Virus record (IMG/VR): IMGVR_UViG_3300009548_000002
Direction: 5' to 3' (one strand)
DNA length: 64,000 bases
Source: a virus
Positions 80 through 62,856 of the stretch are shown here, in pieces (the first letter of the stretch is position 1; each line of letters starts with the position of its first letter). Below the pieces are notes generated by a model, which worked only from the letters and a program-made list of their open reading frames with translations, made no database searches and was not told where the DNA came from. A program made the translations under genes and the position numbers.

Positions 80-80
80 A

Positions 81-7229: not shown

Positions 7230-7238
7230 GAAAACCGA

Positions 7239-8019: not shown

Positions 8020-8032
8020 TCCACGTCGATGC

Positions 8033-8558: not shown

Positions 8559-9130
8559 GCGTCGAAGCTTCCGCCCCGCTCCGCGTGCAGCTCCGCACGA
8601 AGAGGTATTTCTCGTGCCCGTCGTGCGGTAAGCACGAGTTCGAGGTCGAGCACCTGTTCGAAGACGAAATTTCCGGCGAGCGTGAGGTCGGGCCGTGGCA
8701 ATGCGACGAATGCGATGCGACGTGGATGGTGCGCGTCCGTCCGGGCCACGGGACCCTCGACGTCGTCCCCGCGCCGCAGCGGTCGTGGCACAACTGGGAC
8801 ATCCTCGAACTCACCGGCGCCGGCAAGACGATCATCCGCCTCGTCGTTCCCGGGCTCTCGTTCGAGAAGGACCGGAAGCTCGACGAAGAACTCGAGCAGA
8901 AGCGCTTCTACTACGAGGAGAACACGTGTCCGACGAACTACCTCCGTCGGGCGACCCTCGTCGCGTCGGGCGACCATGAGCATTGGGGTGACGACGACCC
9001 GCACGGGCTCTTCCGCTTCGCCACGACGTTCGAACACCCCCTGCGTCCGCATCAAGTCTGGAGCAGCAACGAGATGAACACCCTCGGCGAAATCGCGTGG
9101 AAGACGCTCGCGAAGTTGGGGCGATCGTGA
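8556..9130 (+). CDS. Zinc-ribbon protein, about 191 aa
   Basis: CPSCGKHEF...CDECDATW; GTG start overlapping upstream stop; strong GC3. Confidence 0.5.
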
Positions 9131-9327
9131 GTCGGTCCATTCGCCCTGAGAAGAGTCGGCGGATGCCCGAGGGCCGCGCCGAGTCGCCCGAGATCAAGGA
9201 AGCCGTCGTCAAGCGCCACACGTTCGGCCGCACGGAGAAGATTCGACGCCGGAACAGGAAGACGTGGACGCGGCTCGCAAATAAGCGACGCAGGCGACTC
9301 GATAAGAAGTCGGAGACCGCGTCGTGA
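9127..9327 (+). CDS. Small basic protein
   Basis: GTGA overlap; R/K-rich. Confidence 0.35.
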   Translation: MSRSIRPEKSRRMPEGRAESPEIKEAVVKRHTFGRTEKIRRRNRKTWTRLANKRRRRLDKKSETAS

Positions 9328-9611
9328 TCCCGAAGATGGATCAGAGCAAGCTGCCGAGTGCGGGCGAGATGCGTGAGCGCATCGCCAAGCTCGAAAAGGA
9401 TCGTGAAGACAAACGCACGCTCCGCGGAAAGCACGCGCCGAAACCAGGGACATGCCGCGTCTGCGGCGGCAGCGTCGTGGGTAACGTCGCTTACCCGCAT
9501 TCAGACAGAATCGGTGGCCCGCCGCTCCAGGCCTACGTCCAGGATTGGCACTGCGAGGGCTGCGGCATCGTCTACAAATTCCCGCCGATGGAAAAGAAGC
9601 GAGCGAAGTGA
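9324..9611 (+). CDS. Zinc-ribbon small protein
   Basis: CRVCGG...CEGCG; GTGA overlap. Confidence 0.45.
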   Translation: MIPKMDQSKLPSAGEMRERIAKLEKDREDKRTLRGKHAPKPGTCRVCGGSVVGNVAYPHSDRIGGPPLQAYVQDWHCEGCGIVYKFPPMEKKRAK

Positions 9612-10801: not shown

Positions 10802-12333
10802 GCTTTCCCTTCCTTCACCGCGAGACGCCCTCGGTCGTGCGCGTCCTTCATCCGGACATCGACATCAAGCTTTTCGCGAACGAGTCGGTCTCCGTGGAGG
10901 CCGACGCATTCGAGCAGCTCATCGAGTTCGCCGACGTGGCCCGCGCGATCCGAGAAGTTCGTGAGCGGGACACGCGCGGCGCCGGCGATCCGTTCTTCGG
11001 CGACGCCGCGCCCGCGATCGAACGCGTCGTGCTCACGCCGGACTTTCACAAAGGCTCGGGCATTCCCGTCGGCACGGTGGTTCAGGCAAAGAACGTCGTC
11101 ATCCCGCAAGCGATTGGCAACGACGTCTGCTGCGGGATGCGGCTCCTCGCGACCGATCTGCCGGCCGAGTCCCTCGAGCCGCACTGGCCCGCGATCCAGA
11201 AGCGTCTCCGCGCGATCTTCTTCGAGGGCGAACGCGACATCCCGATGTCGCCGCGGCAGCGCGAAGCGGTCCTCCGTCATGGCCTACCAGGTCTTGTGGA
11301 CACGTCGGACGACAATCTCACGCGAGGGATCTGGCAGCGCTTCGATCCGAAGTCGCAGCGGGATGACGTCCACCACGTGCACGGCGGCGGGATCCTTCCG
11401 ACAAGGAGACTCTTCGGGTTCGAGAACTTCATCCGCTCGTCGGGCAACATCGACGGCCGCGACCCGCAGATCGGATGCGTCGGCGGCGGCAATCACTTCG
11501 TCGAGATCCAGCGCATCGACGCGCTCTACGAGGGCCACGCGGCTCGCGCGTGGAACCTCGTCCGCGGCAACGTCGCCATCATGGTGCACTCGGGCTCCGT
11601 CGGGATCGGGCACGCTGTCGGTGGGCACTTTATGGATCGCGCGCGCGAGATCTTCCCGAGCGACATCGCGTCGCCGAAAGGCGGCTTCTTCCCACTGCCG
11701 ACGGAAGGACCGAGATGCGAAGAGGGACTCTTCTATCTCGACGGGATGGGGAACGCTGCGAACTTCGCCTTCGCGAACCGGCTCTTTTTGGGTCTCATGG
11801 CTCTTCGCGCCATCGAAGAGGCGACAGGGCTCAGTATCGATGCGCGGCTCGTTTACGACGCGCCCCACAACCTCGTCTTCAAGGACAACGAGTCGTGCCT
11901 CCATCGCAAAGGCGTAACCCCGGCGCACGGGCCAACGGACGACGGCCAAGGTTCCGAGTGGCTCGGCAAGCCTGTCATCATCCCGGGGTCCATGGGCGCG
12001 CCGAGCTACCTTCTCGCGGGCGAGGAGAACGATGAAGCACTCTCAAGCGCGTGTCACGGCGCCGGCCGGAGTCTCTCACGCGGAAAAGCGGCACATGTTC
12101 CGCGCTCCGAGTACCTCGAATCCGTGGAGCGCCTCCGCATCGTCGGGCCCGTCGATCCGAAGTCGCCGATGATGCGAATGAGGAAAGACATTCTCGATAA
12201 ATACGAGAAGCGCATGATGGAGGAGGCGCCTTACGCCTATAAACCCATCGAGCCCGTCATCGACTCTGTCGTGGACGCGCACGTTGCGCAGCGTGTGGCG
12301 AAGCTCTTCCCGCTCTGCACCGTGAAAGGGTGA
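10798..12333 (+). CDS. rtcB: RtcB-family RNA ligase (joins 3'-phosphate/2',3'-cyclic phosphate to 5'-OH)
   Basis: RtcB metal/GMP motif series: DVCCGMR, GGGNHFVEIQ, HSGSVGIGH, LHRKG, CHGAGR; TTG start overlapping the upstream TGA. Confidence 0.9.
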   Translation: MSFPFLHRETPSVVRVLHPDIDIKLFANESVSVEADAFEQLIEFADVARAIREVRERDTRGAGDPFFGDAAPAIERVVLTPDFHKGSGIPVGTVVQAKNVVIPQAIGNDVCCGMRLLATDLPAESLEPHWPAIQKRLRAIFFEGERDIPMSPRQREAVLRHGLPGLVDTSDDNLTRGIWQRFDPKSQRDDVHHVHGGGILPTRRLFGFENFIRSSGNIDGRDPQIGCVGGGNHFVEIQRIDALYEGHAARAWNLVRGNVAIMVHSGSVGIGHAVGGHFMDRAREIFPSDIASPKGGFFPLPTEGPRCEEGLFYLDGMGNAANFAFANRLFLGLMALRAIEEATGLSIDARLVYDAPHNLVFKDNESCLHRKGVTPAHGPTDDGQGSEWLGKPVIIPGSMGAPSYLLAGEENDEALSSACHGAGRSLSRGKAAHVPRSEYLESVERLRIVGPVDPKSPMMRMRKDILDKYEKRMMEEAPYAYKPIEPVIDSVVDAHVAQRVAKLFPLCTVKG

Positions 12334-15307: not shown

Positions 15308-17062
15308 TTACTGAAGTTCGGGCGAAAGGCTGTAGGCCTTCGCAGACCCGTCGATGAGTCCGAGCGCGCGGAGATCCGCGAGCGTCTGCCCGTACGACCC
15401 CGACGTGTTCGAACGTTTGATCGCCGAGGCGATGTCCTCGCGCGACATCGGGCCGGCGCGCCAGAGAGCGCGCAGGACGAGCCCGTCGCTGGCCGGGCGC
15501 TTACCGATCCACCACTCGAGGAGCGCTTCTCCCTTCGGGAGCTTCTCGACGTAGCCGGCGACCTTCGCATGTCCTTCGGTCGTGATCGCAAACTCCTTGG
15601 ACGACCCGACGATGTCTCCCGCCGCCCGCAGATCCGCAAGCGCTTGACCGAATGATCCGCTCGTGTGCGAGTAACCGGTCCAGATCGCAAGCTTCTTCCG
15701 GTTCATCGCACCACCCGCGGCGAGGGTGCAGAGGATCTTCTTCTCGATCGGGCTCATCCCGGCGATCGAAGATTCAGCCTTCGCCGGTTTCACCGGATAA
15801 ACGACTTCATACTCCTTGGCGAACTTCTTCTTCGCGGCGCCGTTCGCGTGCTCCATTTGAGCGGACGTCGGGCCGCCCTCGAGCCAACGCTTGAGCGCCT
15901 TGAGCAGGTAGGTGTTGGTCTCGAGGATCTTGTTGTGGATCTCCTCGGCGCTGTTGAAGACCTCGATTCGCATTTTCTCGAGCGTCTCGAGTTGCTCTTT
16001 TGCCCATTCTGCCTCGGTGCGACTGAGGAGCGGCTTCTCGGGCGGCGGCGCGAGCTTCACCTCGGCGACGCGGCTCGCGAGCTGCCGCTCGAGCTGCGCG
16101 ATCCGCGTGCGAAGCACCTTCGGATCCTCGGCGCTCGCCTTCTCGATCGCGTCCGCCATCTTCTTTTTGAGCGCGTCGAGGTCCACGTGCGCGAGCGTCG
16201 TGGGAGTCACGCGCTTCTCGCCGGCCTTCGGCGTCGCCGACGAGTCGAAGGTCCGGCGCTCGCGGACGGGCACCTCTTTGAAGATGTCGAGCCAACCGGG
16301 CGACCAGCACCACGCGACGCCGCGGGCGAGTTCCGGTAAGCGCGCCAAGAACGTCTCTTTCTGGTCGGCCGTGTCGTGCTGCTCGATCCACCCTTCGAGC
16401 GCTTTGCGATCTTGCGGCGAGCTTGTGCGGTGGCAGATGAGAAGCTCGAGTTGTGTCAAAATATCTTTGTTGACCGACGCCGCGCGCTGGTCGATGACGG
16501 CGACCCCGATGCCGCTCGTCCGTCCTTGGCGAACAAGTTTCTGGATCGCGCCGACCATCTGCGCTTCCGCCCCGGTCACCCGCTGCGGGACGAAAAGATG
16601 TCCCTCGTCGATGGCGAGCAGCATCGGCGTGTCGCGGCCCTCCTCGCCCTTCCTGTGGTAGAGCCTCCGCGCGAAATCCGTCACGAAGCGACGCATGTCG
16701 CCCTGCGACTCGAAGTGCCGGAGCGACAGGATCGCCGGCAGGCGCTCCTCGACGATGAAGTCCGCGACCGTCGCACCATCGGCCGCCGTGAGCGGGACGT
16801 CGCCGTGCCTGCCGCCGAAGACGATGACGGGGTAACCGGCCTCCTTGCCGTTCTTCGATGACTTGAGCCCCCACCAGACGTCGGTTGGGTCGATGATGAC
16901 GACCTGCTGCCCGGCGTCGAGCAGCTCCTCGGTGAGGACGACACACGTGTTCGTTTTGCCCGAACCGCGGATGCCGAGAATCGCGATGGTCTCCGTGATC
17001 GCCTCGAGTGGGAGCGACAGGGCCGTGGAGATGTGGAGCTTTTTCATTCTTTTTTCACCCAT
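15308..17062 (-). CDS. HerA/FtsK-superfamily P-loop ATPase (DUF87-like) with two C-terminal winged-helix repeats
   Basis: Walker A GIRGSGKT; Walker B LLAIDEGHLF; VIDQRAAS...LLICHRT; two homologous wHTH segments (MSPIEKKILCTLAAGG... and LVLRALWRAGPMSREDIASAIKR...). Confidence 0.8.
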   Translation of the reverse strand: MGEKRMKKLHISTALSLPLEAITETIAILGIRGSGKTNTCVVLTEELLDAGQQVVIIDPTDVWWGLKSSKNGKEAGYPVIVFGGRHGDVPLTAADGATVADFIVEERLPAILSLRHFESQGDMRRFVTDFARRLYHRKGEEGRDTPMLLAIDEGHLFVPQRVTGAEAQMVGAIQKLVRQGRTSGIGVAVIDQRAASVNKDILTQLELLICHRTSSPQDRKALEGWIEQHDTADQKETFLARLPELARGVAWCWSPGWLDIFKEVPVRERRTFDSSATPKAGEKRVTPTTLAHVDLDALKKKMADAIEKASAEDPKVLRTRIAQLERQLASRVAEVKLAPPPEKPLLSRTEAEWAKEQLETLEKMRIEVFNSAEEIHNKILETNTYLLKALKRWLEGGPTSAQMEHANGAAKKKFAKEYEVVYPVKPAKAESSIAGMSPIEKKILCTLAAGGAMNRKKLAIWTGYSHTSGSFGQALADLRAAGDIVGSSKEFAITTEGHAKVAGYVEKLPKGEALLEWWIGKRPASDGLVLRALWRAGPMSREDIASAIKRSNTSGSYGQTLADLRALGLIDGSAKAYSLSPELQ

Positions 17063-27739: not shown

Positions 27740-27943
27740 TTGACCTCGCGGTGCAAAGAAGTTAGGTACAGTTACGTGATGAAATACTTCGTGATGCTCG
27801 TCGGCCCGGACGGCAAACCCCTCCCGATGGTGGACGAAGACGGGAGCGTCACGCTCTTCGACTCCGAGGACGACGCCGAGAAGGCCGGCGCCGAGAACAT
27901 CCTTGGCGGCGGGCGCGGCTACGAGGTCTACCCATGGGACTGA
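27740..27943 (+). CDS. Hypothetical small protein (start likely MKYFVMLVG about 27779)
   Basis: Track ORF. Confidence 0.4.
   Translation: MTSRCKEVRYSYVMKYFVMLVGPDGKPLPMVDEDGSVTLFDSEDDAEKAGAENILGGGRGYEVYPWD
27745..27775 (+). promoter_or_regulatory. Sigma70-like promoter candidate: TTGACC, 17-nt spacer, TAGGTA
   Basis: Read directly, upstream of + operon start about 27779; CAGTTAC element shared with other candidates. Confidence 0.35.
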
Positions 27944-28113
27944 AGGCCAGGATCGTCTTCGAAGACGGCGATCGCTCCTCCTCGGATCGCCATTACGTGG
28001 CCATCTTCCTCGGCAGAGACAAGATCGCCGAGAGCCGCTCGATGAGCGAGAAGGACTGCGAGAAGCTCTGCAAGCGCATCAACGACGCCATCGCCAAGGA
28101 ACGCGAGGCCTGA
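27934..28113 (+). CDS. Small protein, about 59 aa (below track cut-off)
   Basis: Hand translation: MGLKARIVFEDGDRSSSDRHYVAIFLGRDKIAESRSMSEKDCEKLCKRINDAIAKEREA; ATGA overlaps on both sides. Confidence 0.35.
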   Translation: MGLKARIVFEDGDRSSSDRHYVAIFLGRDKIAESRSMSEKDCEKLCKRINDAIAKEREA

Positions 28114-29288
28114 TGCTGAGCGATCTGCGCGCCTTTGAAGTCGTGCTCGCGCGCGCCACGTGTCCCGAGGACGTGTTCGGCGTGGCCCTGAACCTCGCCG
28201 CGCTGAAGAAGTCCTTCCACCACATCGCCGTCGTCGTGCATCCGGACAAGTACGCCACCGATGCCGCCACGTCCCGACTCGCGCAAGACCTCTTCGCCAA
28301 GCTCGTCGTCTGGATGAACAGCGCCGAGCACAAAATGGAGCGCGGGACCTACGGCGACCGCGCGCCGCACGAGCCTGCCCCGCCCCCGAAGCCGAAGACC
28401 GCTCTGCAGATCATCGAGACCCCGAAGCGCCGCTACGTCGTCAAGGACCTCCTCGCGCAGGGCGACGTCGCCGACGTCTACGCCTGCACGTACGTGGACA
28501 AGGGCCGGAGCGGCGACGGCGATCACCCCGCCGCGTTCAAGATCGCCCAGAGCGCCGCGGACAACGACCTCATGGAGAACGAGTCGCGCACGCTCTCGGC
28601 GATGTACCCGCCCGCACAAAAAGAAGAACGCTTCTACCGCTACCTCCCGAAGCCGGTCGACTCGTTCCTCCTGAAGTCGGGTGGCGGCGCCGCGCGACGC
28701 GTGAACGTGATGCAGCTCGCGGAGGGTTACGTCTCGCTCGCCGAGGTCATGGCGGCGTACCCGCACGGCCTTGACTACAAAGATGTCGTCTGGATGCTGA
28801 AGCGAAATTTGGCGGCCCTATGGTACTGCCACAGGCAGAAGCTTGTCGTCCACGGCTGCATTATTCCTACAAACCTATTGGTCCATCCGACCGGACACGG
28901 CGCAAAGGTTGTTGACTGGTGCTACGCCGTTCGCGACTGGCCGAACGACAAGGACCACGTCAAAGCGATCAGCAAGGCGTGGAGGGCATACTACGCGCCC
29001 GAGATCCTCGCGAAAAAGCCGCCGACGCCGTCGGCCGACCTCTACATGCTCGCGAAGATCGTCGTGAAGCTCCTCGGCGGTGAAGTCGCGGAAAGCTCGC
29101 CCTCTTTCCTCATCCCCGATGCTGTTCCGAAACCGATTCGATCGTTTCTCTCGGGCATGCTCCTCATGAACCCAGCCCGTCGCCCCGACGACGGCGGCAA
29201 GCTCCACGAGGAGTTCGACGAGCTGCTCCTCAAGCTCGTGGGCAAGCCCAAGTACAGGCCGCTCGTCATGCCCGCGAGGACCGCGTGA
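28113..29288 (+). CDS. J-domain (DnaJ-like) fused to a protein-kinase-like domain with non-canonical catalytic motifs
   Basis: J-domain HHIAVVVHPDKYATDAA...LFAKLVVWMN; kinase-like AAFKIAQ, ENESRTL, VVHGCIIPTNLLVH (HRD replaced by HGC), VVDWCYA (DFG replaced by DWC), YYAPEIL, DLYMLAKIVVKLLGG. Confidence 0.65.
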   Translation: MLSDLRAFEVVLARATCPEDVFGVALNLAALKKSFHHIAVVVHPDKYATDAATSRLAQDLFAKLVVWMNSAEHKMERGTYGDRAPHEPAPPPKPKTALQIIETPKRRYVVKDLLAQGDVADVYACTYVDKGRSGDGDHPAAFKIAQSAADNDLMENESRTLSAMYPPAQKEERFYRYLPKPVDSFLLKSGGGAARRVNVMQLAEGYVSLAEVMAAYPHGLDYKDVVWMLKRNLAALWYCHRQKLVVHGCIIPTNLLVHPTGHGAKVVDWCYAVRDWPNDKDHVKAISKAWRAYYAPEILAKKPPTPSADLYMLAKIVVKLLGGEVAESSPSFLIPDAVPKPIRSFLSGMLLMNPARRPDDGGKLHEEFDELLLKLVGKPKYRPLVMPARTA

Positions 29289-31807: not shown

Positions 31808-32008
31808 ATGTTTTTGGCGATGAAGTCCAGATCTCGATCTCGATCGCTCACGCAGGAGGAGCGAGAAGAGGCGCGTCGGCGCGAGCATGCGTACCGTGAG
31901 GCATGCAGGCTCGAGGACGAAGCGAACGTCGTCATCAAGCCGCTCACGTGGTGGAGACGCTTCTTCTTGTGGCTTGGCAAGACCTTCACCCGATGGGGAG
32001 CGACGTAA
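31808..32008 (+). CDS. Hypothetical small basic protein
   Basis: Track ORF. Confidence 0.3.
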   Translation: MFLAMKSRSRSRSLTQEEREEARRREHAYREACRLEDEANVVIKPLTWWRRFFLWLGKTFTRWGAT

Positions 32009-32011
32009 ACA

Positions 32012-33396
32012 TGGCGAACATCACCCTCGTCCTCGGTCTCGGATTTGGCGATGAAGGCAAAGGCGGCTGCGTAGATTTTTTGGCGCGTCACCACGACGCT
32101 CGGCTCGTCGTGCGGTTCAACGGTGGAGCGCAAGCGGGTCATAATGTCATCGACCCAAACGGACAGCACCACTGCTTCTCGCAGTGGGGATCGGGTACCT
32201 TCGCGGGCGCGCGGACGCTCCTGTCGCGGCACGTGCTCGTGAATCCGATCTTCGCCGAGAGCGAGGCGAGGCACCTCGAGTCCGCCGGCGTCCGGGATCC
32301 CTACGCGCTCCTCTCGGTCGAGCGACTCGCGCCCGTCACGACGCCGTTCCACGTCGCCGCGAACCGGTGCCGCGAGCTTTCGAGGCAAGCGGCGAGCGGC
32401 AGCGTGCACGGGAGCTGCGGCATGGGCGTCGGCGAGACGATGGAGGATCTCGTGGAGGGGAGAGAGACCGTTTGGGTGCGCGACTTCGAGGACGACACCC
32501 CGACGCTCAAGCGGAGACTCTTCCGCATCCAGGAGCGGAAGCGCTCCGAAGTCCTCCAGCTCGCGGCCCTCGATCGCCGCTCCCCGCGCGTCCTCCAAGA
32601 ACTCTTTGTGCTCGAGGACCCGAGCATCGTCGACGCCGTCTGCGCGTCGTACACGAAGTTCGCCCGTAAAGCGTCGATCGTGAATCAAGATTTCCTCGAG
32701 CGCGAGCTGGACGCTCCCGGCCACGTCGTTTTCGAGGGCGCGCAGGGCGTCCTCCTCGACGAGTGGTGGGGCTTCCACCCGCACACGACGTGGAGCACGT
32801 GCACCTTCGACAACGCGACGGAGATCCTCGGCGCCGAGCGCGCGGGCCGCGCTCGGCGCATCGGGGTGCTCCGCACGTTCCACACGAGGCACGGAGCCGG
32901 CCCCTTTCCGACGGAGAATAAGAGCATGGACGCGCTCTCGGCGGACGACCACAACAAGCGCGACCCTTGGCAACACGATTTCCGCACCGGAGCCTTCGAC
33001 CTCCTCCTCGCGCGGTACGCGCTCGACGTGTGCGGCGGGTGCGACGGCCTCGCCTTCACGCACCTCGACAAGCTCGAACGGCGCGCGAGCCTACCCGTCG
33101 CCATCGGGTACTACGTGGACGGCGCCAAGATGGTGCGCATCCCGCACCGGCGCCCGAACGATCTCCAATACCAAGAGCGACTCGGCCGGCAGCTCGCACA
33201 AGCGCAACCCATCTATGCCTCCGCGGATCTTGGCGGCGAGCGCATCGCCATGCTCCACGTGGAAGGACTCGCCGAAATGCTCGAGACTCCGCTTGCGATC
33301 ATCTCACGCGGCAAGACCGCTGCAGACAAGATCACTTTGGGTGAAGGCGCGCATGCTTCCCCGCGCCCGCAGTTCTCCACGCCGCCACCCAACTGA
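32012..33396 (+). CDS. Adenylosuccinate synthetase-family enzyme (PurA/PurZ-like), divergent in substrate-binding motifs
   Basis: GLGFGDEGKGG P-loop; GGAQAGHNV; FEGAQGVLLDEWWG; HTRHGAGPFPTE. The IMP loop reads GSCGMGVGE (canonical TTGRGIGP), the aspartate loop WQHDFRTG (canonical RRRRTG), and the guanine motif THLD (canonical TKLD). Start at MANITLVLG inside track ORF 31903-33396. Confidence 0.85.
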
Positions 33397-44216: not shown

Positions 44217-45123
44217 TCACGTCTCGGCGCGCTTGCGCCGGACAAGCTCGGTGACGAGGCCCGCGGAAGGACCGTGCGCGCGAAAGTAGACGATGGATTT
44301 TCTTCCCGGCCTCGCGCAGAGTTGGCACTCGAGGCACGTGAGCTTATGCGTCTGCGCTGGGCACGAGACGAGCTTGCGGCCCTCGGGCGTCCGGTCCGGG
44401 ACCTCCGCGCGCTCGGGCACGACGACCACGACGGGCGCAATGCCGAGCCCAGCCGCGGCGTCCGCCTCTTCGATTGAATCGGTCGAGAGGTTCACGACGA
44501 ACCCTTGCCGCGTGGCCTCGGTGATCGCGCGCCGGTTCTTCTTCCGGACGAGCACCTGCCACACCTTCGGAAGGACCGGCTTGTGCGTGAACGTGAAGCC
44601 GCGTCGTCCCGCTTGGGCGCGTGCGAGCTGCTGGAGCCTGCCCATGTCGATGGCGTTGCCCTCGCCAGGGAGATCGCCTGCCTCGTTGAAGCGCCAGAGC
44701 GTTCCTTCCTCGAGCGCAGCGACCTCGCAGAGGAAGTCGTCCCACGGCATGCCGCGCTCGCGGACGCGATCCCAATGGTAGCGATCGAAACCGTTGTCGG
44801 CGTAGCAGCCGGCCTCGTAGAACATGCACGCGGGCGGGCACGTCCCGCGCTCGGAGTACGTCGTCGGGATGGGTCCGAGCTTACGATTCCCGCTCCGGGG
44901 GACGAAGGAGATGCGTCCGGCGCTCGCGGCATCTTTCCTCTTCGGTCTCGCGTCGAGCTTCTCCGCGGGAGTCTTCCGCTCCCAGTCGCCGTATCGCTTG
45001 TTGCGCTTGTCGCTGCATGCGTTGCAGAGCGCGTCATGCTCGCGTCCGCGCCGGACGAACGCCGCGCGGGGTTTGTTTCGGTGGCAGCGCGCGCAATTTT
45101 TGGCCGCCGTGGACCCCGCCCTC
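44217..45123 (-). CDS. Zinc-finger protein, about 302 aa, encoded immediately downstream of the HDAC-like gene
   Basis: CARCHRN...CNACSD at the N-terminus; GTCPPACMFYEAGCYADNGF; LTCLECQLC; N-terminal extension of track ORF 44217-45803 rejected. Confidence 0.5.
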
Positions 45124-46015
45124 ATGGCTCTTTTTCGCAGTAGACGCGCGCGCACTCGCGCATCGTGTTGTCGTGGACCTCGAGCACTTTCGGGATGCTT
45201 CCGTCCTTCTCTCGCTGGTAGCCGCCGGCGAGGTTCCACGCGACGGGGATCTCGGCGGCGGGGATCTCGGCGGCGGAGAGCGCGTCGAAGACGATCGCGT
45301 CGCGCCGCCGAAGTTGCTCGGTCGTGAGCCAGCCGCCGTACGGGTCGTCGATGTGCGGGTCGGCGCCGGCTTGGTAAAGGACGACGTCCACCTTGTCGAG
45401 GATCATGTGCGCGAGGACCTCGGGGAGTCCCTCGTCGAGGAACGCCTCCGCCTGATCGGGCCTCGTCCAGTTGAGGCCCGCGGTGAAGTGCGTGATCCAA
45501 TCCGCACCGAAGCGGTTCTTGATGTTCACGGTGCCGTTGCCGTAGTGCATGTCGAGGTCGAGGATGCCGACGCGCGGGATGCCGTCCGCCTTCAACGCGA
45601 AGGCGGCGACCATGAGGCCGTTGAACGTGCAAAAGCCCTCCGCGCTCGCGTAGCCCGCGTGGTGGAAACCCGAGCACGGCGCCGCGGCCGCGGCGCCGGT
45701 CGAGATCGCGAGGCGTGCCGCCTGGAGCATCGCGCCGGACGTGTACGGGAGCGCGGCGGCGACCTCGGGCGACTTGTTGCCGAAGCCGTTGGGCTTTTTG
45801 CATCTGAGGATGTCTTCAGCCCAGTCGACCGCATGCACACGCGCGTAATCGCTGAGCGTCACGGGCCGCGGTTCGAGGATCGTGATCGGGAATTTGTTCT
45901 GCCACGAGGCCACGACCTCCTTCGGCTTCTTCGCGCTCGGAGACTCGCAACCGGAATCGGCGACCATCTTCGGCGTGTAGAAGACCGGAATCTTGAAGAG
46001 CTTGCCTCTCGCCAT
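45122..46015 (-). CDS. Histone-deacetylase-family (HDAC/AcuC/acetylpolyamine amidohydrolase) zinc hydrolase
   Basis: HHAGYASAEGFCTFNGL; VGILDLDMHYGNGT (D-x-D-x-H metal site); VVLYQAGADPHIDDPYG; AGGYQ catalytic Tyr. Confidence 0.75.
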   Translation of the reverse strand: MARGKLFKIPVFYTPKMVADSGCESPSAKKPKEVVASWQNKFPITILEPRPVTLSDYARVHAVDWAEDILRCKKPNGFGNKSPEVAAALPYTSGAMLQAARLAISTGAAAAAPCSGFHHAGYASAEGFCTFNGLMVAAFALKADGIPRVGILDLDMHYGNGTVNIKNRFGADWITHFTAGLNWTRPDQAEAFLDEGLPEVLAHMILDKVDVVLYQAGADPHIDDPYGGWLTTEQLRRRDAIVFDALSAAEIPAAEIPVAWNLAGGYQREKDGSIPKVLEVHDNTMRECARVYCEKEP

Positions 46016-55118: not shown

Positions 55119-55442
55119 ATGCCCAGCCCCGACACCTGCGCCCACTGCCGCGGAGCCCTCCACCTCGCGACCGACGCCGTCTCGCGCCGGATCCCGCCGC
55201 CCGACGCCATGCGCGGCGCGATGCTTTTCGGGATCGCCGTCGGCGAAGCGCACCTCGACATCAAGGACGTCTGCACCGAGTGCCGGGAGCAGATCGAGCA
55301 CATCAAGGAAACCATCCTCGGTGCCCAGCCCTCGAGCGAAACGAAGCGCGCCGCTCCTGCGACGCCGCCCATCGTGACCCCGCCGAGCGGCGAGAAGGTG
55401 CCGGCGCAGATGGCGCCGGCCACGACGCCCAAGGCCACTTGA
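55119..55442 (+). CDS. Zinc-ribbon protein
   Basis: CAHCRG...CTECREQ; strong GC3. Confidence 0.5.
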   Translation: MPSPDTCAHCRGALHLATDAVSRRIPPPDAMRGAMLFGIAVGEAHLDIKDVCTECREQIEHIKETILGAQPSSETKRAAPATPPIVTPPSGEKVPAQMAPATTPKAT

Positions 55443-55708
55443 AAACGGTCGACGGTGATCGCGCCGAGGTCCTCAGCAGCGTCGCTCGGAAGATCCTCGA
55501 AGTGATGAACGCCGAGAAGCTCTCGGCCAATGAGGCGCTCATCGTTCTCGCACGCATCATGGGTCAGTGCGAGGGGCACGGTTTGCTCCACGGCGAACTA
55601 CACGGCAGCCTGGACGCGGTTCACGCGGAGATCTCGGGACGCGTCGCCGAGGAGCGCGACGCGTACATCGCGTACGCGCGCGAAAAAACCGAGATGACAT
55701 TCGGCTAA
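55439..55708 (+). CDS. Hypothetical small protein (TTG start overlapping TGA)
   Basis: Good GC3 from LKTVDGDRAEV. Confidence 0.4.
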   Translation: MKTVDGDRAEVLSSVARKILEVMNAEKLSANEALIVLARIMGQCEGHGLLHGELHGSLDAVHAEISGRVAEERDAYIAYAREKTEMTFG

Positions 55709-55718
55709 GATCGAACGC

Positions 55719-56243
55719 GTGTACTCCCCGTGCATGCTCTTCCGCGGCTTCGACGGCCTGGACGACAACGGTCGCATGATCGTCGTGCGGGCGCTGCTCG
55801 AGACGCTCACGCTGTCGAACTGGCAGTACATGAAGCGCCATCCGGAGACGCCGCTCCTCTACGAAGCGCGACCCCGGTACGTCGTCCATCCCGCGCGGGG
55901 CGGCGACGAATGGCGCGACATCGCCGAGACGTTCAAGCGCGGCGCCGGCACTTGCAAAGACTTCGCGTGCATCCGGGTCGCGGAGCTTCGGATGCAGGGC
56001 TACGAGGACGTCGTGCCGTTCATCAAGCTCATCACGTATCCCGATCCAAAGAAGCGACGACCGCCGCTCACGCTCTTCCACGTGCTCGTGCGAAACGGTG
56101 ACGAGTACGAAGATCCTTCGAGCATCCTCGGGATGCCCAAGAACCTAAGCTACGCCGAGCTTCGCGATCATCCAGACGCGGGAGGCATTCACGGCGCGCG
56201 CTGGGGCCTCGAGCAGTGGGCCTCGACGTCAGCGTCGCCGTGA
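55719..56243 (+). CDS. Possible transglutaminase-like cysteine peptidase
   Basis: GAGTCKDFACIRVAELRMQGYED (Cys motif), LTLFHVLV (His), EYEDPS (Asp) in transglutaminase-core order. Confidence 0.4.
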   Translation: MYSPCMLFRGFDGLDDNGRMIVVRALLETLTLSNWQYMKRHPETPLLYEARPRYVVHPARGGDEWRDIAETFKRGAGTCKDFACIRVAELRMQGYEDVVPFIKLITYPDPKKRRPPLTLFHVLVRNGDEYEDPSSILGMPKNLSYAELRDHPDAGGIHGARWGLEQWASTSASP

Positions 56244-58364
56244 AGATGAAGTTCGACGCTTACGAGTCCGAGGTGCCGCCTTCTTGTCCTTGTTCATCCC
56301 GAAGATGACGTACCCAGCGGCGAGGCCAACAAGAGCGCCGGCAAAGATCTTTTTCCACGGCATGCCCGTCTCGACGCTGCCCGCGACGAGGTAGTCGGCC
56401 TCGGGAAGTTCGTCCATCTCGCCATAGCGATCGAGGATCCCGACGTTGTGCGTGAGCGCGTTGTCGGGATCGAGAGCAAGCCTGGACTCGGGCTCGGGCT
56501 CAGGCCACCACGCTTCGGGCGCGAACTCCGGCCATCCTGCTTGCTGCCCTGACCACGGATAGTCGACGTCGTTCGCGGGAGGCAGAGATTCTTTTGCGAA
56601 GTATCCCGCCCAATCGCGCTCGTACGACCACGGAGGTTGTCGCTCGCGTGCGCGCGTCGTGGGACTGGAAGGCCAGCCACCGTGCGCAGGTTTGGACGAC
56701 GCTGGCCCTTGGGTCACTTCCGCGGGAGAAGCGACTTCGGCGGACGGGATGCCGGGCGGCTCGACGTTGCCTGACGCTTCGCCGGCCGCAACGCTCTCCG
56801 CGGACGGGATACCGGGAGGTTCGACAGAGGCCGAGATCTCGGGCGGTCCTGCGGCAGAAGCTGAAGGAATTCCTGGCGGAGAGATGCCCACGCGCGCATC
56901 GCCGGGCGCAACGATTTCTGGTGACGGCACGCCGGGCGGCGTGATCGCCGCCGAAAGCTCGCCGGCTCCGTGGCTACTGGCAGAAGGAATACCGGGTGAT
57001 CCGACGACGGCCGAGATTTCGGACGGCTGAACGATTTCAGGTGACGGGACGCCGGGCAACGCGAGCACGACGGAGACGTCACCGGTCGCGACGACGCCGG
57101 GTGACGGGACGCCGGGCGGAGCGACTCCTTGAGATGCGTCCCCGGGCGCGATGACTTCGGGAGACGGGATGCCTGGCGATCCGACGACCGCCGAGAGTTC
57201 GCCCGCTCCAGTGATCTGCGGCGACGGGACGCCGGGCGGAGCGAGCGCGAGAGAGACGTCGCCGGCCGCGACGACTCCGGGCGACGGGATGCCAGGCGAT
57301 CCGACGACGGCCGAGATGTCACCCGTCACGATGACTTCGGGTGATGGGATGCCGGGCGGCTCGAGCGCCGCCGACACGTCGCCCGCAGAAACGATTTGCG
57401 GTGATGGAACTCCGGGCGGCTCGATCGATCCGGAGAGATCGCCAGCAGCGACGGCTTGCGCGGACGGGATGCCAGGAACCGCGAGCGCGCTCGCGAACGA
57501 TCCCGTTCCGACCCCTTGCGGCGACGGGATGCCCGGAGGCTCCATCGACGTCGACACGTCACCCGCGCCCACGATTTGCGGCGACGGGATGCCCGGCGGC
57601 TCGATCGATCCAGAGAGTTCACCTGCAGAGGTGACTTGCGCAGACGGGATGCCAGGAACCGCGAGCGCGCTCGCGAACGATCCCGTTCCGACCCCTTGCG
57701 GCGACGGGATGCCCGGAGGCTCCATCGACGTCGACACGTCGCCTGCGCCTACGATTTGCGGCGACGGGATGCCCGGCGAACCGACGACGGCTGCCACGTC
57801 GCCTGCGGAGACGACTTGCGGACTCGGAATGCCCGGCGGCGTGATCGCTGCCGAGACATCCCCGGCGCTCACGACTTGCGGCGACGGGATGCCCGGCGGC
57901 GTGATCGCGGCAGCGACATCACCTGCAGTCGTGATCGACGCGGATGGAATACCCGGAGGCTGGATCCGCTCAGCAACGTCGCCCGCGCTCACACGTGCGA
58001 CGCTGACGATGCCCGGCGGCGTGATCGCGACGGCGACGTCTCCCGCATTCGCGATCGATGCGGATGGAATCCCCGGCGGCTGGATCCTCTCGGCGACGTC
58101 GCCCGGGCTCGCGGTCGCGACGCTAACGATGCCCGGCGCGTCGATGACGATCGCAAGCTCGGCAGGCTCGACGAGCATGACGCTCGAGATGCCGGGCGGC
58201 TCTACGAGAATCGCAACGAGGCTACTGCCCTGCACACCGCCACTCGGAACGCCGGGAGCCGCGACGATCTGTATGACTTGGCCCGCGCCGCTCGAAGCAG
58301 CCGACGGGATGCCAGGCGGCGAAAGTACGATCGTCTGGGAAAGGCGCGCGAGGAGAAGACTCAC
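56229..58364 (-). CDS. Repeat protein, 711 aa: about thirty tandem 17-residue units (PPGIPSxxxxxAGDVSxxx), then a W/P/E-rich domain, a C-terminal TM helix and a basic tail
   Basis: 51-bp DNA periodicity with a 180-bp higher-order duplication (57476-57655 vs 57656-57835); C-terminus IFAGALVGLAAGYVIFG + KKAAPRTRKRR; start is 12 nt after the upstream gene. Confidence 0.6.
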   Translation of the reverse strand: MSLLLARLSQTIVLSPPGIPSAASSGAGQVIQIVAAPGVPSGGVQGSSLVAILVEPPGISSVMLVEPAELAIVIDAPGIVSVATASPGDVAERIQPPGIPSASIANAGDVAVAITPPGIVSVARVSAGDVAERIQPPGIPSASITTAGDVAAAITPPGIPSPQVVSAGDVSAAITPPGIPSPQVVSAGDVAAVVGSPGIPSPQIVGAGDVSTSMEPPGIPSPQGVGTGSFASALAVPGIPSAQVTSAGELSGSIEPPGIPSPQIVGAGDVSTSMEPPGIPSPQGVGTGSFASALAVPGIPSAQAVAAGDLSGSIEPPGVPSPQIVSAGDVSAALEPPGIPSPEVIVTGDISAVVGSPGIPSPGVVAAGDVSLALAPPGVPSPQITGAGELSAVVGSPGIPSPEVIAPGDASQGVAPPGVPSPGVVATGDVSVVLALPGVPSPEIVQPSEISAVVGSPGIPSASSHGAGELSAAITPPGVPSPEIVAPGDARVGISPPGIPSASAAGPPEISASVEPPGIPSAESVAAGEASGNVEPPGIPSAEVASPAEVTQGPASSKPAHGGWPSSPTTRARERQPPWSYERDWAGYFAKESLPPANDVDYPWSGQQAGWPEFAPEAWWPEPEPESRLALDPDNALTHNVGILDRYGEMDELPEADYLVAGSVETGMPWKKIFAGALVGLAAGYVIFGMNKDKKAAPRTRKRRTSSSRRR

Positions 58365-58376
58365 GGCAGCGCCTTT

Positions 58377-59138
58377 CTAGAACTGCACCCAGTCCATCGA
58401 CGTGTACGCGAGATTGCCGGCTTGGGTCGCGACGGGATTTTCACGCATGATGACCAAGTTCGGACCCGTTACCGGGATCGGCGTCTCGTAATCGTGATCT
58501 TCGCTACCTCCCGCGAGGTGGAGGATGATGTCTCCGGCTTGGAGGATCGGATTCGTCGTACGAGGGTCTCCGGTCACGACCATGTACGATCGACCCGCGG
58601 CGAGCGTGCCCGCACCGGTGTGCTTGGTGATGTAACAAGTGACGCCGACGGGGACGTAGTGATGGGCATAGAACGTGGAGTTGTCGCCGATCGCGATCGC
58701 GGCCATGACGACGCCGCCGCCCGCGACAGCGGTCATCAGGTTGATGGTCCCGACGTTGGCCAAGTTCGAGCCGCACGACGCGATGACCATGCTCTCGATG
58801 AACTGGATGTCGTTGCCGACGGTGTTCACGGGCGTCACGCCGTTCAGCGCCACCGTCTCCGACTTGGGCTGCATCGCGTTGTTCAAGTAGTTGATCGTGA
58901 CGGAGATCGCACCCGTCCCGGCCCCCGCATCGCTCGCGCTCGTGGAGACGACGCTCCTCTGCCCCTGCGCGACCTGCTGCGCGAACGTCGTCGCGCGCAC
59001 GTTCGTCGGTACGTTGAGGGTGGGCGCCGAGACGTACCCCACGTTCCGGCCCGCGCTCGCGTTCGCATAGGAGCTTGGCGAGATGGCCAAGCAGAACTGG
59101 AACGGGATGACGGACGTATCGCCAAACGGATCAGGCAT
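58377..59138 (-). CDS. T/A/G/N-rich probable virion structural protein
   Basis: Track ORF; composition typical of beta-rich structural/fibre proteins. Confidence 0.45.
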   Translation of the reverse strand: MPDPFGDTSVIPFQFCLAISPSSYANASAGRNVGYVSAPTLNVPTNVRATTFAQQVAQGQRSVVSTSASDAGAGTGAISVTINYLNNAMQPKSETVALNGVTPVNTVGNDIQFIESMVIASCGSNLANVGTINLMTAVAGGGVVMAAIAIGDNSTFYAHHYVPVGVTCYITKHTGAGTLAAGRSYMVVTGDPRTTNPILQAGDIILHLAGGSEDHDYETPIPVTGPNLVIMRENPVATQAGNLAYTSMDWVQF

Positions 59139-59156
59139 CTAAAGACCTCACGTTGA

Positions 59157-60605
59157 TCACATCCAATAACCGTCGACCGACACCGTCCCGCGATTGATGC
59201 CCGGCGTTGCCGCGGCCGTCGTCACGAGCCACTTGAAGCCGATGTGCGTGAACAAACCAGGCAAACAGATGAGCGGCGTCTTCGGAGCCCACGTGGTCGC
59301 CCCCGTTGCGCTCCACAACGTGCCGATTGCCGGTGCGATCGTCGTCGTGTACTGGATACCGAGAGCCTGTCGCAAGCCGCCGCCCGTCGAAAGTAAGTTG
59401 GTGGTGGCGTTGACGCAGACGAACCACTCGATGAACGGCACTCCCGTGAGCGACATCGCCGTCGTGACCATCGGCGCGGGGATCTGGATGCTCTGGAGCA
59501 CGAGCGAATACGGCGTTGGATTCTGGAAAGTGAAGATCGGGGCGCCGGTCTCGATCGCCGCCACGCCCGCAACCGCGTACTCGCCACCGAGGAAAGCGTA
59601 GCCCGTCGTCGCGTTCGCAGGCGTCAACGTCGCGGGGATCGCATTGAACGGCGACGGCGTCTGCGCGCCGGTCAGCGGGTTCACGAGCGCCGATCGCATC
59701 GCAAGTGCCGACTGATCCGACCACGGCATGTTGTTGAGCGCGTCGAGGATCTGAACGGTGTGCGCCGACAGCTTGAGCTGCACTGCAGTGCCGCCGCCGA
59801 CACCGTCCACGTACACGCGTGCAAAACTCGGAACGTGGGAGACGGCGAACGAGTACGGGACGCTCAGGGAGAGCGGCATCTGCATGTCGACGATCGGTCG
59901 TTCACTCGAGTCCGACACGATGAAACGAGCGAAGTCGTCATCGACGATGACGTCGTAATAGTAATAGCTTGTGGTGGCGACGACTCCTTGCGCGAGCACC
60001 TGAGTGACTTGCTCGGTCCCATTGTATGAAAGGACCGCCGCAAGCGTTCCGTCGGCGCGCCAGCGGAAAAAGGCACCGTTTTGAACGATGGCCGTCGTGG
60101 TCGTCGGCGCACCAAAACCAAGCTCGGCGATCGTGTGATTGGCAGCGGGATTCGCTGACAAGAGTGCCCGGAAGCGGCAATAGAGGGGCTGGCGGGCATA
60201 CTTGGGAAATTGACGCTGACTCGTGATGATCGCATCCGTGTTGAGCGTCGTGATCCCGCCATTATTGAGCGTGAGAACACCCGTCACCTGCACGGCAGTC
60301 ATCGTGGCGAGCGATTGCGTCCAGAACGCGTTGATGTTCGCGCCCTCGAACGCGTCTTGCCAAAGGATCTGTTCGCTCGTCGTCCGCTGGCTCGAATACG
60401 TCCCTACACGAATGGCTCGAAGAACGGTGCCGGAGTCGAGTCCGGAGACGGGCAGATAACCCTGCGTCGCGGGGGCGACAGACTTGTCGGCAGGAACAAG
60501 AACGTTTCCGTTTGCATCGTAGAGAAGCGCGCGCCCGCTACCGAATGCGTCGACGTCGAGGATGTTCGAACCCGAACCCGCTCGTCCTTGTACCTGCCAC
60601 GGCAT
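59157..60605 (-). CDS. T/A/G-rich probable structural (fibre or capsid) protein, 482 aa
   Basis: Track ORF; long, low-charge, T/S/N/G-rich. Confidence 0.5.
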   Translation of the reverse strand: MPWQVQGRAGSGSNILDVDAFGSGRALLYDANGNVLVPADKSVAPATQGYLPVSGLDSGTVLRAIRVGTYSSQRTTSEQILWQDAFEGANINAFWTQSLATMTAVQVTGVLTLNNGGITTLNTDAIITSQRQFPKYARQPLYCRFRALLSANPAANHTIAELGFGAPTTTTAIVQNGAFFRWRADGTLAAVLSYNGTEQVTQVLAQGVVATTSYYYYDVIVDDDFARFIVSDSSERPIVDMQMPLSLSVPYSFAVSHVPSFARVYVDGVGGGTAVQLKLSAHTVQILDALNNMPWSDQSALAMRSALVNPLTGAQTPSPFNAIPATLTPANATTGYAFLGGEYAVAGVAAIETGAPIFTFQNPTPYSLVLQSIQIPAPMVTTAMSLTGVPFIEWFVCVNATTNLLSTGGGLRQALGIQYTTTIAPAIGTLWSATGATTWAPKTPLICLPGLFTHIGFKWLVTTAAATPGINRGTVSVDGYWM

Positions 60606-60613
60606 CGATCACC

Positions 60614-60916
60614 TCAGTTCCAGACCCACGCGACATTCCACTTCCCGATGACGGGACCCATGCTCGACGCGGCGACGATCGTAAACCCCGTCCCAGCGAC
60701 GATCGCTTGGCACGTGATCCCGATGCCGCCTGCAGCGGCCATCGAATGCTCGTCTGGAGAGTGATCGGGCGTTGCAGGTGCGGTCGCGTCGAGCCATGCC
60801 TCGGCGAGCGACGCGGGGTACGCCAAGATCCCGGCTTGTCCCGTCACAGGGACCGTCGTGCGATCGGATCCGGGCGACGGGCCGAAATCGACGATGGCGG
60901 TTCCTTCCGCGCCCAT
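60614..60916 (-). CDS. Hypothetical small protein
   Basis: Start MGAEGTAIVDF (ATGA overlap with upstream gene). Confidence 0.4.
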   Translation of the reverse strand: MGAEGTAIVDFGPSPGSDRTTVPVTGQAGILAYPASLAEAWLDATAPATPDHSPDEHSMAAAGGIGITCQAIVAGTGFTIVAASSMGPVIGKWNVAWVWN

Positions 60917-61815
60917 CAGATCGCCATGATGGCGGTGGGCAGACCCGGGTACCAGAGGATCGGCACCGTGAAGCTGATGTTGCCGCCGTTCGGCGCGAAA
61001 GGCAGACCCGCGACCGTCGCGATGACGTCGGCCTGATGGCCCGCGGGAATCGCGCCACCCAGCGCCGCGACCGTGATGGATCGATCGCCTTGGTTGGCCG
61101 CCACGGTGAGCGTCGCGCTCTGCCCGTTCGAGAACCAGAGCGTCGAGTTGTTCGGGATGCCAGCGATGAGCGGCTCGACGCGCACGACGACGTCGCCGCC
61201 GTTCGCGGTCGTGTTGCAAACCACTTGGAGCTTGCCGTCGTTGATCGCGATGAGCCGGTTCGTCCCGTCGGATCCGCCGGCCGCATCGTAGAAGATGATC
61301 GCGGCCGCGAGCTGTCCCGCATAACCCGGCGAGACTGCGAGCCATGAGAAGTTGTTCGCGCTGAGGACGCCACCGATGTCTGTCGTGCCCGCGAGCGGTC
61401 CAGAATCAACGCCGACGCGGCCATTGCCGACGATGATGTCGCTCACGAACGTGGCCTGCGTGAGGTCGACCGCCCATCCGCCGGCCGTATACGCGGCGGA
61501 ACCGGCGACGTTCATCCCCGCGCCCTCGAGCGTGAGCATCTGGAACGTGTTCGCCGCGACCGCTGTCGCGCGCCCGAGCTGGTTGGTCGAGAAGTTGCCG
61601 CCGATGGCCCCGGTCAAGATGATGTCGCCGTTCACGAAGCCGTGCGCCGCTGACGTGTAGACGGCGGGGTTCGCGTTCGTAACGTTCGTGATCTCCTTCG
61701 TCCACGTCGCGGGCTGCGTCGGATCGAAGAGCGCGGCCTTCTGGTTGTCGGCGACCCACCCGATCAGTTTCTCGCCGAAGCCGTGCCGGCCCGGGTCGAA
61801 CATGCGTCCGCTCAT
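60916..61815 (-). CDS. G/A/T/N-rich probable tail-fibre-like protein
   Basis: Track ORF; composition. Confidence 0.5.
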   Translation of the reverse strand: MSGRMFDPGRHGFGEKLIGWVADNQKAALFDPTQPATWTKEITNVTNANPAVYTSAAHGFVNGDIILTGAIGGNFSTNQLGRATAVAANTFQMLTLEGAGMNVAGSAAYTAGGWAVDLTQATFVSDIIVGNGRVGVDSGPLAGTTDIGGVLSANNFSWLAVSPGYAGQLAAAIIFYDAAGGSDGTNRLIAINDGKLQVVCNTTANGGDVVVRVEPLIAGIPNNSTLWFSNGQSATLTVAANQGDRSITVAALGGAIPAGHQADVIATVAGLPFAPNGGNISFTVPILWYPGLPTAIMAI

Positions 61816-61953
61816 GACAGCCCTCGCGCGTGTTCGCTCATCCCGCGGATCTTCTCATAGCTGCGGCTGAAACGCCATGACCGAGATCCAAGGAAAAGGG
61901 CTATATACGCAAGCCGTGATCCAAGGGAAGGACACCAACCTCACGGCGCATGC

Positions 61954-62436
61954 TCAGCCCTCGAGCTTGCGACGGTGGACGATCTTCGAGACGACGCGCG
62001 GGTTCTCGTCGATCTTGAACTTCTGCCCGCGGAACTCCTCCAGGCGGAACTTGTTCGCCGGGTCACCTTCCCACTCGGTCCCTTCCATGAAGGCGACGAA
62101 GATTTTCGGTTCGTCCGACGTGTTCGAGACGAGGAGATCGAGCGAGGAATTCGGAACGTTCGTGTCGAGGCCGAGACTCACGCCCTTCGCCCTCTCGCTG
62201 AAAGCGGGGCCCGGGATCGGGTTCGTCACGACCGCTTGCGAGGCGCCCGCGACCACGATGTCATGGACGAGGAAATGGATGCCGACGTTCTCCGGAATGA
62301 CGAGCCTTCGTCCAGCGAAGTGACGCGTCGTCACGATCTGAAAGACGACAAGCTCCTTGGGTCCCACGATCTCGGGTCCGAACCAATAGGGAGTGTCATA
62401 GGGATCGGCGAGTTGGACTTCGGCAGCGCTGGTCAT
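61954..62436 (-). CDS. Hypothetical (possible structural) protein
   Basis: Track ORF. Confidence 0.45.
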   Translation of the reverse strand: MTSAAEVQLADPYDTPYWFGPEIVGPKELVVFQIVTTRHFAGRRLVIPENVGIHFLVHDIVVAGASQAVVTNPIPGPAFSERAKGVSLGLDTNVPNSSLDLLVSNTSDEPKIFVAFMEGTEWEGDPANKFRLEEFRGQKFKIDENPRVVSKIVHRRKLEG

Positions 62437-62460
62437 GTTCTGATCTCCGCCTCTCTTCTT

Positions 62461-62856
62461 TCACATCCCCCACGTCGGGACCAAAATGATCCAACCGTCG
62501 ACGGTCACGAGGTTCGTCTTGTCGGGGTGCGGGTCGTGCACGATCTCGTGCCCCTTCGCGACGACCGCGTGCGGACGGCCTCGCGGCGAACGACCACCGA
62601 GGACGTAGTAGCTCCCGGGCAGCGTTCCCTCGAAGAAACGGATGGGCACCTCCGGCGTCGCGAAGTGGAGCGCGTAGAGCCCGAACTGCGAGAGCCACGC
62701 ATCGAGCCTCGATGCCCAGTCGAAGTGCGACGTGTCGCCAGGCTCGCTCAAGAAGAGCGGCACGGCATCGACGTTTGGGATCTCGAGGAGCGACGCCAAA
62801 CATGCGGAGAAGCAATTTCCGCGAGCCCCTGTGATCGATTGGTCGATGGGGATCAT
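62461..62856 (-). CDS. Possible CHAP/NlpC-P60-like cysteine peptidase (lysin candidate)
   Basis: GNCFSACLASLL (Cys) ... GRPHAVVAKGHEIVHDP (His); start MIPIDQSIT inside track ORF 62461-63171. Confidence 0.35.
   Translation of the reverse strand: MIPIDQSITGARGNCFSACLASLLEIPNVDAVPLFLSEPGDTSHFDWASRLDAWLSQFGLYALHFATPEVPIRFFEGTLPGSYYVLGGRSPRGRPHAVVAKGHEIVHDPHPDKTNLVTVDGWIILVPTWGM

Follow-up and report, generated by a model that had tools for sequence, protein, structure and literature searches.

A 27-unit repeat protein with a hydrophobic, polybasic C-terminus as a candidate length-variable fibre or stalk of an uncultured jumbo phage

Phage minor tail proteins have already been catalogued with a module of short tandem repeats, in the family PHROG 13352. 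In Wildcat gp45 and in Rctr197k_090, from the jumbo Virus Rctr197k, a short N-terminal peptide is followed by five such units and then by a globular domain. Here we describe a protein of the same repeat class encoded in a 64,000-nucleotide stretch of viral DNA (IMG/VR record IMGVR_UViG_3300009548_000002), the whole of which we call the window. The protein is 711 residues long and is built from 27 consecutive units of exactly 20 residues, set between a short N-terminal peptide and a non-repeat C-terminus. What is new relative to the catalogued module is the extreme expansion of the array and the C-terminus, a predicted membrane helix with a polybasic tail. Our preferred reading, to which we assign a probability of about 0.45, is that this is a length-variable, modular fibre or stalk protein of an uncultured jumbo phage, with an atypical C-terminus that would engage a membrane or a polyanion. 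The features that bear on the gene and its coding strand are the following.

56229 to 58364, minus strand: whole repeat open reading frame (ORF), 711 aa, GTG start, stop codon at 56229-56231 (from the ORF list and its translation)
58372 to 58376, minus strand: Shine-Dalgarno-like AAAGG, 7 nt before the GTG and inside the 12-nt gap that precedes it (read from the sequence)
57151 to 58380, plus strand: antisense mirror ORF, 409 aa (GDGMPGG...), judged to be no gene on account of two stops in the array, a negative codon log-likelihood and unconserved termini

The upstream gene ends with a TAG at 58377-58379, 12 nt before the GTG of the repeat ORF. An initial annotation of the window had called this 711-aa ORF and chosen the minus strand, while pointing out that the antisense frame shares its wobble position, yields a second repeat 'protein' (GDGMPGG...), and leaves the guanine-cytosine content of third codon positions (GC3) unable to decide. 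All of this was borne out. The minus frame of the array and the plus frame of the 409-aa ORF have the wobble position in common, and the GC3 values compared are 0.72 and 0.75. Other measures do separate the two frames. The minus frame has no stop in the 540 codons of the array, while the wobble-sharing plus frame has two (57028 and 57130). With codon usage modelled on 43 long window genes, the array scored a codon log-likelihood of +0.098 in the minus frame and -0.034 in the plus frame, and a synonymous-codon log-likelihood of 0.238 and 0.146. For reference, true window genes scored 0.242 +/- 0.107 and 0.258 on these two measures, and their antisense frames -0.17 and 0.17. Variability between units followed the canonical order of codon positions in the minus frame (2 < 1 < 3), whereas in the plus frame positions 1 and 2 were swapped and this order was not seen. 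Finally, the non-repeat N- and C-termini that are kept in divergent orthologues belong to the minus-strand product only. Since stops, codon usage, codon-position variability, and conserved termini all favour the minus strand, the 711-aa ORF is a genuine gene coding on that strand.

The opposing explanation denies a minus-strand gene altogether and takes either the plus-strand 'GDGMPGG' ORF to be the true coding sequence or the repeats to be non-coding DNA or an artefact of assembly. It draws on the shared wobble position, the 409 open codons, and the indecisive GC3. We consider it highly implausible, given the stops, negative log-likelihood, and wrong variability order of the plus frame, and given that only the minus frame joins both conserved termini of the orthologues. 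An artefact is also difficult to reconcile with an identical protein assembled on four contigs and a locus that is 99.9% identical in an independent Joint Genome Institute (JGI) assembly. A CRISPR-like or non-coding repeat was also rejected as the identity of the ORF. The array itself is organised as follows.

56700 to 58319, minus strand: array of 27 x 20-aa (60-bp) units, aa 16-555 (from Tandem Repeats Finder, unit splitting, and autocorrelation)
58080 to 58319, minus strand: units 1-4, more hydrophobic (VIQIVA, VAILVE, LAIVID), matched position for position by orthologues
57600 to 57779, minus strand: higher-order copy A, units 10-12, which match units 13-15 at 93%, 100%, and 85% identity, unit by unit
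57420 to 57599, minus strand: higher-order copy B, units 13-15, which pairs with copy A
57561 to 57740, minus strand: 180 bp (three units) missing from JGI contig L012, its sole structural difference from the window

Splitting the protein at its PG[IV] anchor gave 27 units of exactly 20 residues with zero indels and the consensus PPGIPSPQVVGAGDVSAAIE, i.e., PPGIPS-x5-AGDVS-x4. P2, G3, and S6 are invariant across all 27, Gly occurs only at unit positions 3 and 13, and hydrophobic residues recur at positions 4, 9/10, 15, and 19. The composition is dominated by P (17%), A (15%), S (14%), G (14%), and V (13%). Tandem Repeats Finder detected the array at periods of 60, 120, and 180 bp (highest score 612), and DNA autocorrelation reached 0.58, 0.61, and 0.65 at these lags, over a background of 0.306 +/- 0.045 at other multiples of 3. 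The highly repetitive nature of the protein had been recognised in the initial annotation, but the ~30 repeats of 17 residues with a 51-bp period that it described, and its unit PPGIPS-x5-AGDVS-x3, do not hold; the autocorrelation of 0.275 at lag 51 is at background level. The units beyond the first four look like a lineage-specific expansion, judging from the alignment with orthologues.

Superimposed on the 60-bp period is a 180-bp duplication. It had been described as near-perfect, at 57476-57655 and 57656-57835, where we counted 154/180 identities (86%); the duplication is real, and its best register is 57419-57598 versus 57599-57778, with 168/180 identities (93%), including a 98-nt exact run. 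Two-unit relations (120 bp) are also visible, with units 4/6 82% identical and units 5/7 83% identical. The exact 711-aa protein was found on the four contigs mentioned above, the longest of which is a 261.5-kb ENA metagenome contig (ERZ27250124, k141_837401) on which the same strand was called. Meanwhile, JGI contig Ga0116127_1003761 (L012) matches window positions 55677-62655 with 5 mismatches in 6.8 kb (99.93% identity) and carries a shorter allele of 24 units and 651 aa. A three-unit loss is the outcome expected of unequal recombination between two 180-bp blocks that are 93% identical. Among orthologues, window protein included, unit number ranges from about 4 to 27, a ~six-fold spread. 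Array length thus changes in blocks of whole units, which fits unequal recombination between 60-, 120-, and 180-bp repeats, and the earlier suggestion of a recombining array with variable repeat number agrees with both the 24-unit allele and the ~4-20 units of the orthologues.

Outside the array, the protein comprises four further segments.

58320 to 58364, minus strand: N-terminal peptide MSLLLARLSQTIVLS, aa 1-15 (compared with relatives)
56349 to 56699, minus strand: non-repeat linker, aa 556-672, with an AHGGWP motif, a W/P/E-rich stretch, and an LPEADYLVAG motif
56295 to 56348, minus strand: hydrophobic Gly/Ala-rich segment IFAGALVGLAAGYVIFGM, aa 673-690, with GxxxGxxxG spacing; predicted single transmembrane helix
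56232 to 56294, minus strand: polybasic tail NKDKKAAPRTRKRRTSSSRRR, 11 K/R in 21 aa, a kind of tail kept across orthologues

The N-terminal peptide type is common to P0016, P0057, the L009 orthologue, P0142, and Rctr197k_090, whose peptide MSRLLFDAAEAILVS resembles that of the window protein. We looked for signal-peptide features and a lipobox in this N-terminus and found neither, and there is no cysteine in the whole protein. The C-terminal 156 residues (aa 556-711) are non-repeat, W/P/E-rich, and contain 8 Trp. IFAGALVGLAAGYVIFGM has a summed Hessa scale of +0.42 and is the sole such segment in the protein; AlphaFold2 models a helix at residues 670-690, covering it. The C-terminal switch to a W/P/E-rich segment, a predicted transmembrane helix, and a basic tail is therefore as originally described.

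An exhaustive phmmer search of 1.84 billion representatives, with a single-sequence query, recovered 232 proteins at E ≤ 0.001. A word-indexed homology search with the full protein returned 8000 candidates, none significant; since the exhaustive search did recover relatives, this null probably reflects swamping by repeat words. Eight uncharacterised metagenomic proteins (P0001, P0002, P0007, P0009 from L009, P0016, P0023, P0057, and P0151) are true orthologues. They share an N-terminal peptide, PPGIPS repeats, an (A/S)HGG(W)P motif, a W-rich linker, a Gly/Ala-rich hydrophobic helix, and a basic tail. Compared with the window protein and its 27 units, they have only about 4-9 units (~20 in L009), one of two alternative N-terminal peptide types (MSLLLAL... 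or MARIGNFDVTLNKQGWFD...), and a C-terminal part that is 26-59% identical. At L009 3740-5276, the repeat gene is split into ORFs of 202 and 399 aa by a frame break near 4168, within the array; misassembly, a pseudogene, or a frameshift could each account for it.

More distant relatives differ in what follows the repeats. In P0006, P0008, P0101, and P0116 this is poly-Pro together with a hydrophobic helix and a basic tail; in others it is a Laminin_G_3 (lectin-like) or M23 peptidase domain. A unit example from the distant relatives is TGIASAEAFGTAQLNQNIVC, and the pattern GIxSxExFG...L...I is kept even in very distant ones. The membrane-anchored family was not found in two scans of GTDB species genomes, and the C-terminal 156 residues had no phage match.

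Profile and pattern similarity lead us to class the array with the repeats that make up the N-terminal module of actinophage 'minor tail proteins'. The 711-aa protein matches PHROG 13352 at E 6.1e-9, over 57 residues only (aa 492-548) and within profile positions 34-93 of 702, i.e., the repeat module; the globular part of the profile (positions ~120-702) was unmatched. The distant repeat proteins match positions ~14-115 of the same profile, with E values down to 4e-164. A tblastn search with one of them, P0013, found 41 mycobacteriophage or prophage records and the 197-kb Virus Rctr197k; in the records listed, the matched genes carry the annotation 'minor tail protein'. For the repeat itself, there was no Pfam match at E ≤ 0.1 and no NCBIfam family, and our literature search found no description of the motif or of mycobacteriophage tail repeats. 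The only sequence match in the PDB was to the 10-residue repeats of DotG (IcmE; E 6e-11), by way of periodic Gly, with two DotG units per 20-residue unit. On the sequence evidence, this match is one of periodicity and composition, not demonstrable homology; that aside, the PDB search found no solved relative of the repeat.

The initial annotation had proposed AlphaFold as a way to choose between a beta-solenoid and a disordered spacer. AlphaFold2 placed two short strands in each unit, both at full length and for six units modelled from a 7-row alignment (6-unit blocks that do not overlap, together with orthologues), yet confidence was low, with predicted local distance difference test (pLDDT) values of 38.8 and 36.6, respectively. 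Foldseek with both low-confidence models gave template modelling scores of at most 0.24 and nothing at E ≤ 0.001. The shaft folds considered for comparison were the beta-solenoid and the triple beta-spiral. Values below 40 in both runs, the P/A/S/G/V-rich composition, and the ~six-fold variation in array length are what one would expect of an intrinsically disordered, elastomer-like tether with no fixed fold, whose role would be only one of length and entropy. We find such a tether improbable. The period is strictly 20 residues without an indel in any unit, the invariant and hydrophobic positions recur throughout, the same pattern persists in very distant relatives, and two strands are modelled in every unit; obligate oligomeric fibres are likewise poorly predicted as monomers. 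The strict period and hydrophobic pattern argue instead for a regular beta-rich repeat, possibly oligomeric.

The repeat gene is the last of a tight same-strand operon encoding products of 299, 100, 482, 253, and 711 aa, with gaps of -1 to 18 nt (coordinates of L004). Its co-orientation with a structural block had been put forward as support for the coding strand; the structural nature of the block is weakly supported. The 299-aa product gives a weak PHROG match to 'major tail protein' (6e-8), an IMG/VR scan with the 482-aa protein found nothing, and PDB sequence searches with two upstream neighbours gave no match. Neighbouring genes in the window and in L004, L005, L007, L009, and L014 mostly had no match in PHROG or Pfam. 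The 253-aa protein immediately upstream (58377-59138, minus strand) contains a domain RATTY..QRSLVSTSA.D..AG.GAR.I.I.Y and has a family match only to PHROG 8198 (function unknown). Three tandem paralogues of this domain (704, 324, and 269 aa) occur in IMG/VR contig L003 at 6753-10654, and paralogous fibre-like relatives in IMG/VR adjoin genes that match 'minor tail' or 'collagen-like minor tail' families weakly.

Downstream, a convergent gene (55719-56243, plus strand) shares 15 nt with the 3' end of the repeat gene. Its 174-aa product has a transglutaminase-like Cys-protease motif, GAGTCKDFA...H...D (GxCxDFA...H...D), and a weak LapG match (E 0.13), and in L005 a homologue with 76% identity is encoded 2.3 kb downstream from the orthologue P0002. 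A PDB search with it returned only designed TIM barrels and RAGE, which we judged uninformative. Three loci that otherwise lack synteny also encode a 107-aa zinc-ribbon-like protein downstream of the repeat gene.

Window 55119 to 55442, plus strand; L007 13076 to 13516; L009 5273 to 5572: 107-aa zinc-ribbon-like protein

The locus of P0016 gives an indication of the host. In L007, the rpsF-ssb-rpsR-rplI-dnaB operon (1-6000) has a GC content of 68-70%, versus 54-63% in the island that carries P0016 (7000-16939), and the DnaB fragment falls in a cluster at ≥ 90% identity with a Gaiellaceae (Actinomycetota, Thermoleophilia) protein. The island looks like an element integrated in an actinobacterial chromosome; it also holds homologues of two other window genes. 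Because the P0016 island lies beside a Gaiellaceae-like operon and the repeat has an actinophage distribution, an Actinomycetota host is suggested, from a relative and not from the window.

Under our preferred reading of a fibre or stalk, the protein would have four modules: the 15-residue N-terminal peptide, a 540-residue beta-prone shaft, the W/P/E-rich linker, and a Gly-zipper helix with the polybasic tail. The N-terminal peptide and conserved first units may dock onto a partner, presumably the tail in the non-membrane relatives, and how far the stalk reaches would depend on the expanded units. A lectin-type distal (receptor-binding) domain would be replaced by the hydrophobic polybasic C-terminus, which would engage the envelope of the probably actinobacterial host by inserting into a membrane or by binding anionic cell-surface or envelope polymers. 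A bolder version, to which we give little credence, is an appendage in which an unsolved 20-residue repeat fold has its length tuned by unequal crossing-over, and a glycine-zipper/polybasic tip serves as a membrane 'harpoon' or a DNA-pilot-like element for the Gram-positive (Actinomycetota) envelope. The earlier proposal of a fibre or host-range protein is thus plausible in its outcome, given the minor-tail type of repeat and N-terminal peptide seen in actinophages and a jumbo phage, although it was reached from a wrong unit length and period and is qualified by the upstream evidence and the unusual C-terminus.

Several observations weigh against a fibre or stalk. The membrane-anchored family occurred in 0 of 50,697 GenBank phage records (megablast and tblastn, queried with the locus, the whole protein, the C-terminal domain, and orthologue P0001), and scans of IMG/VR with both C-terminal alignments found no orthologue. 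A C-terminal hydrophobic or membrane helix followed by a +11 polybasic tail is unusual for a fibre tip. AlphaFold2 did not return a confident fold, and the upstream 'structural' genes have weak or no family matches. The genes upstream of orthologues are unconserved, with sugar-modifying enzymes in L005 and small ORFs without assignment in L007. The 180-bp indel, for its part, could be an assembly collapse in the JGI contig.

The main rival, which we regard as somewhat unlikely, is a membrane protein that the phage encodes but that resides in the infected or lysogenic cell and not in the virion, with its helix in the cytoplasmic membrane, its polybasic tail inside, and the array as a variable-length spacer, e.g., into the cell wall. 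Such a protein might act in superinfection exclusion or envelope remodelling, or be a substrate of the neighbouring transglutaminase-like protease, whose LapG similarity and conservation in L005 would fit this role. The hydrophobic segment and polybasic tail are kept in all orthologues, the four distant relatives with poly-Pro make the same pairing of repeats with helix and basic tail, and P0016 lies in an integrated island amid small ORFs that do not look structural. However, the protein has no signal peptide, lipobox, or Cys and matched no NCBIfam sorting-signal model. In the absence of an export signal, the positive-inside rule would require ~670 N-terminal residues to be exported without one. 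The N-terminal peptide and repeats are also shared with soluble, lectin-bearing proteins of the minor-tail type.

Elsewhere in the window, which has no close relative among GenBank phages, we observed an auxiliary gene set of the kind carried by large phages, at 10798-12333, 15308-17062, 22081-22659, 27903-29288, and 45122-46015: an RtcB RNA ligase, a HerA/FtsK-like ATPase, a RelA/SpoT-type HD-domain protein, a protein-kinase-like gene, and a histone-deacetylase-like gene. A 497-aa adenylosuccinate-synthase-like gene (31903-33396, plus strand) matches PHROG 1211, which has a PurZ-type label, at 1e-72. With NCBIfam it scored 36.8 bits on the PurZ model (cut-off 300) and 168 bits on PurA models (cut-off 402); a PurZ identity is unsupported by these scores, and the gene is better described as a divergent PurA/PurZ-like enzyme. 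At 42341-42501 (plus strand), ARAGORN predicts an 85-nt tRNA-like gene with a 4-base anticodon (actc), followed by tRNA-Tyr(gta), and Rfam backs only the tRNA-Tyr.

The 20-residue 'GIxSxE' repeat is widespread, with 232 representatives and many mycobacteriophage minor tail proteins, yet it has neither a Pfam family nor a solved structure. The window locus is the most expanded example among those examined, and its natural three-unit polymorphism between near-identical genomes makes it a good model for how appendage length could evolve by repeat recombination. A shaft joined to a membrane helix and polybasic tail is undescribed for cultured phages, and this fusion could mean an unrecognised form of envelope engagement or a phage-encoded envelope-spanning protein. 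For annotation, the coding strand is settled and the repeat unit is corrected to 20 residues.

Lastly, the protein can be placed among known systems. As in pentapeptide-repeat proteins and DotG, a hydrophobic residue recurs roughly every 5 residues, which would fit a four-sided 20-residue coil; however, no Pfam pentapeptide model matched, the A(D/N)LXX signature is absent, and the periods here are 20 and 10. A collagen-like phage fibre, built of G-X-Y triplets, was rejected on the 20-residue unit and its two Gly positions. A unimolecular spanin of the T1 gp11 type, with a lipobox Cys and a C-terminal transmembrane segment, was rejected for lack of cysteine. The C-terminus has the tripartite look of LPXTG/sortase and PEP-CTERM/exosortase sorting signals, in which a motif region, a hydrophobic helix, and a basic cluster follow one another, but it differs in having no signature motif directly before the helix and no N-terminal signal peptide. 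NCBIfam sorting-signal models gave no match at E ≤ 1 with the whole protein or its C-terminal 163 residues, and a sortase or exosortase substrate was rejected on these grounds. The closest likeness is to PHROG 13352 (Wildcat gp45, M. abscessus prophage proteins, and Rctr197k gene 090), whose members likewise begin with a short N-terminal peptide and continue in ~20-residue units of the form G-[IV]-x-S-x-[EQ]-x-hydrophobic-G with hydrophobics at 15 and 19, and whose gene closes a run of fibre-like genes. Those proteins stop at ~5 units and continue into a large globular, often lectin-like distal domain without a membrane segment, whereas the window protein has 27 units and a distal part in which a W/P/E linker leads into a hydrophobic helix and then a polybasic tail.

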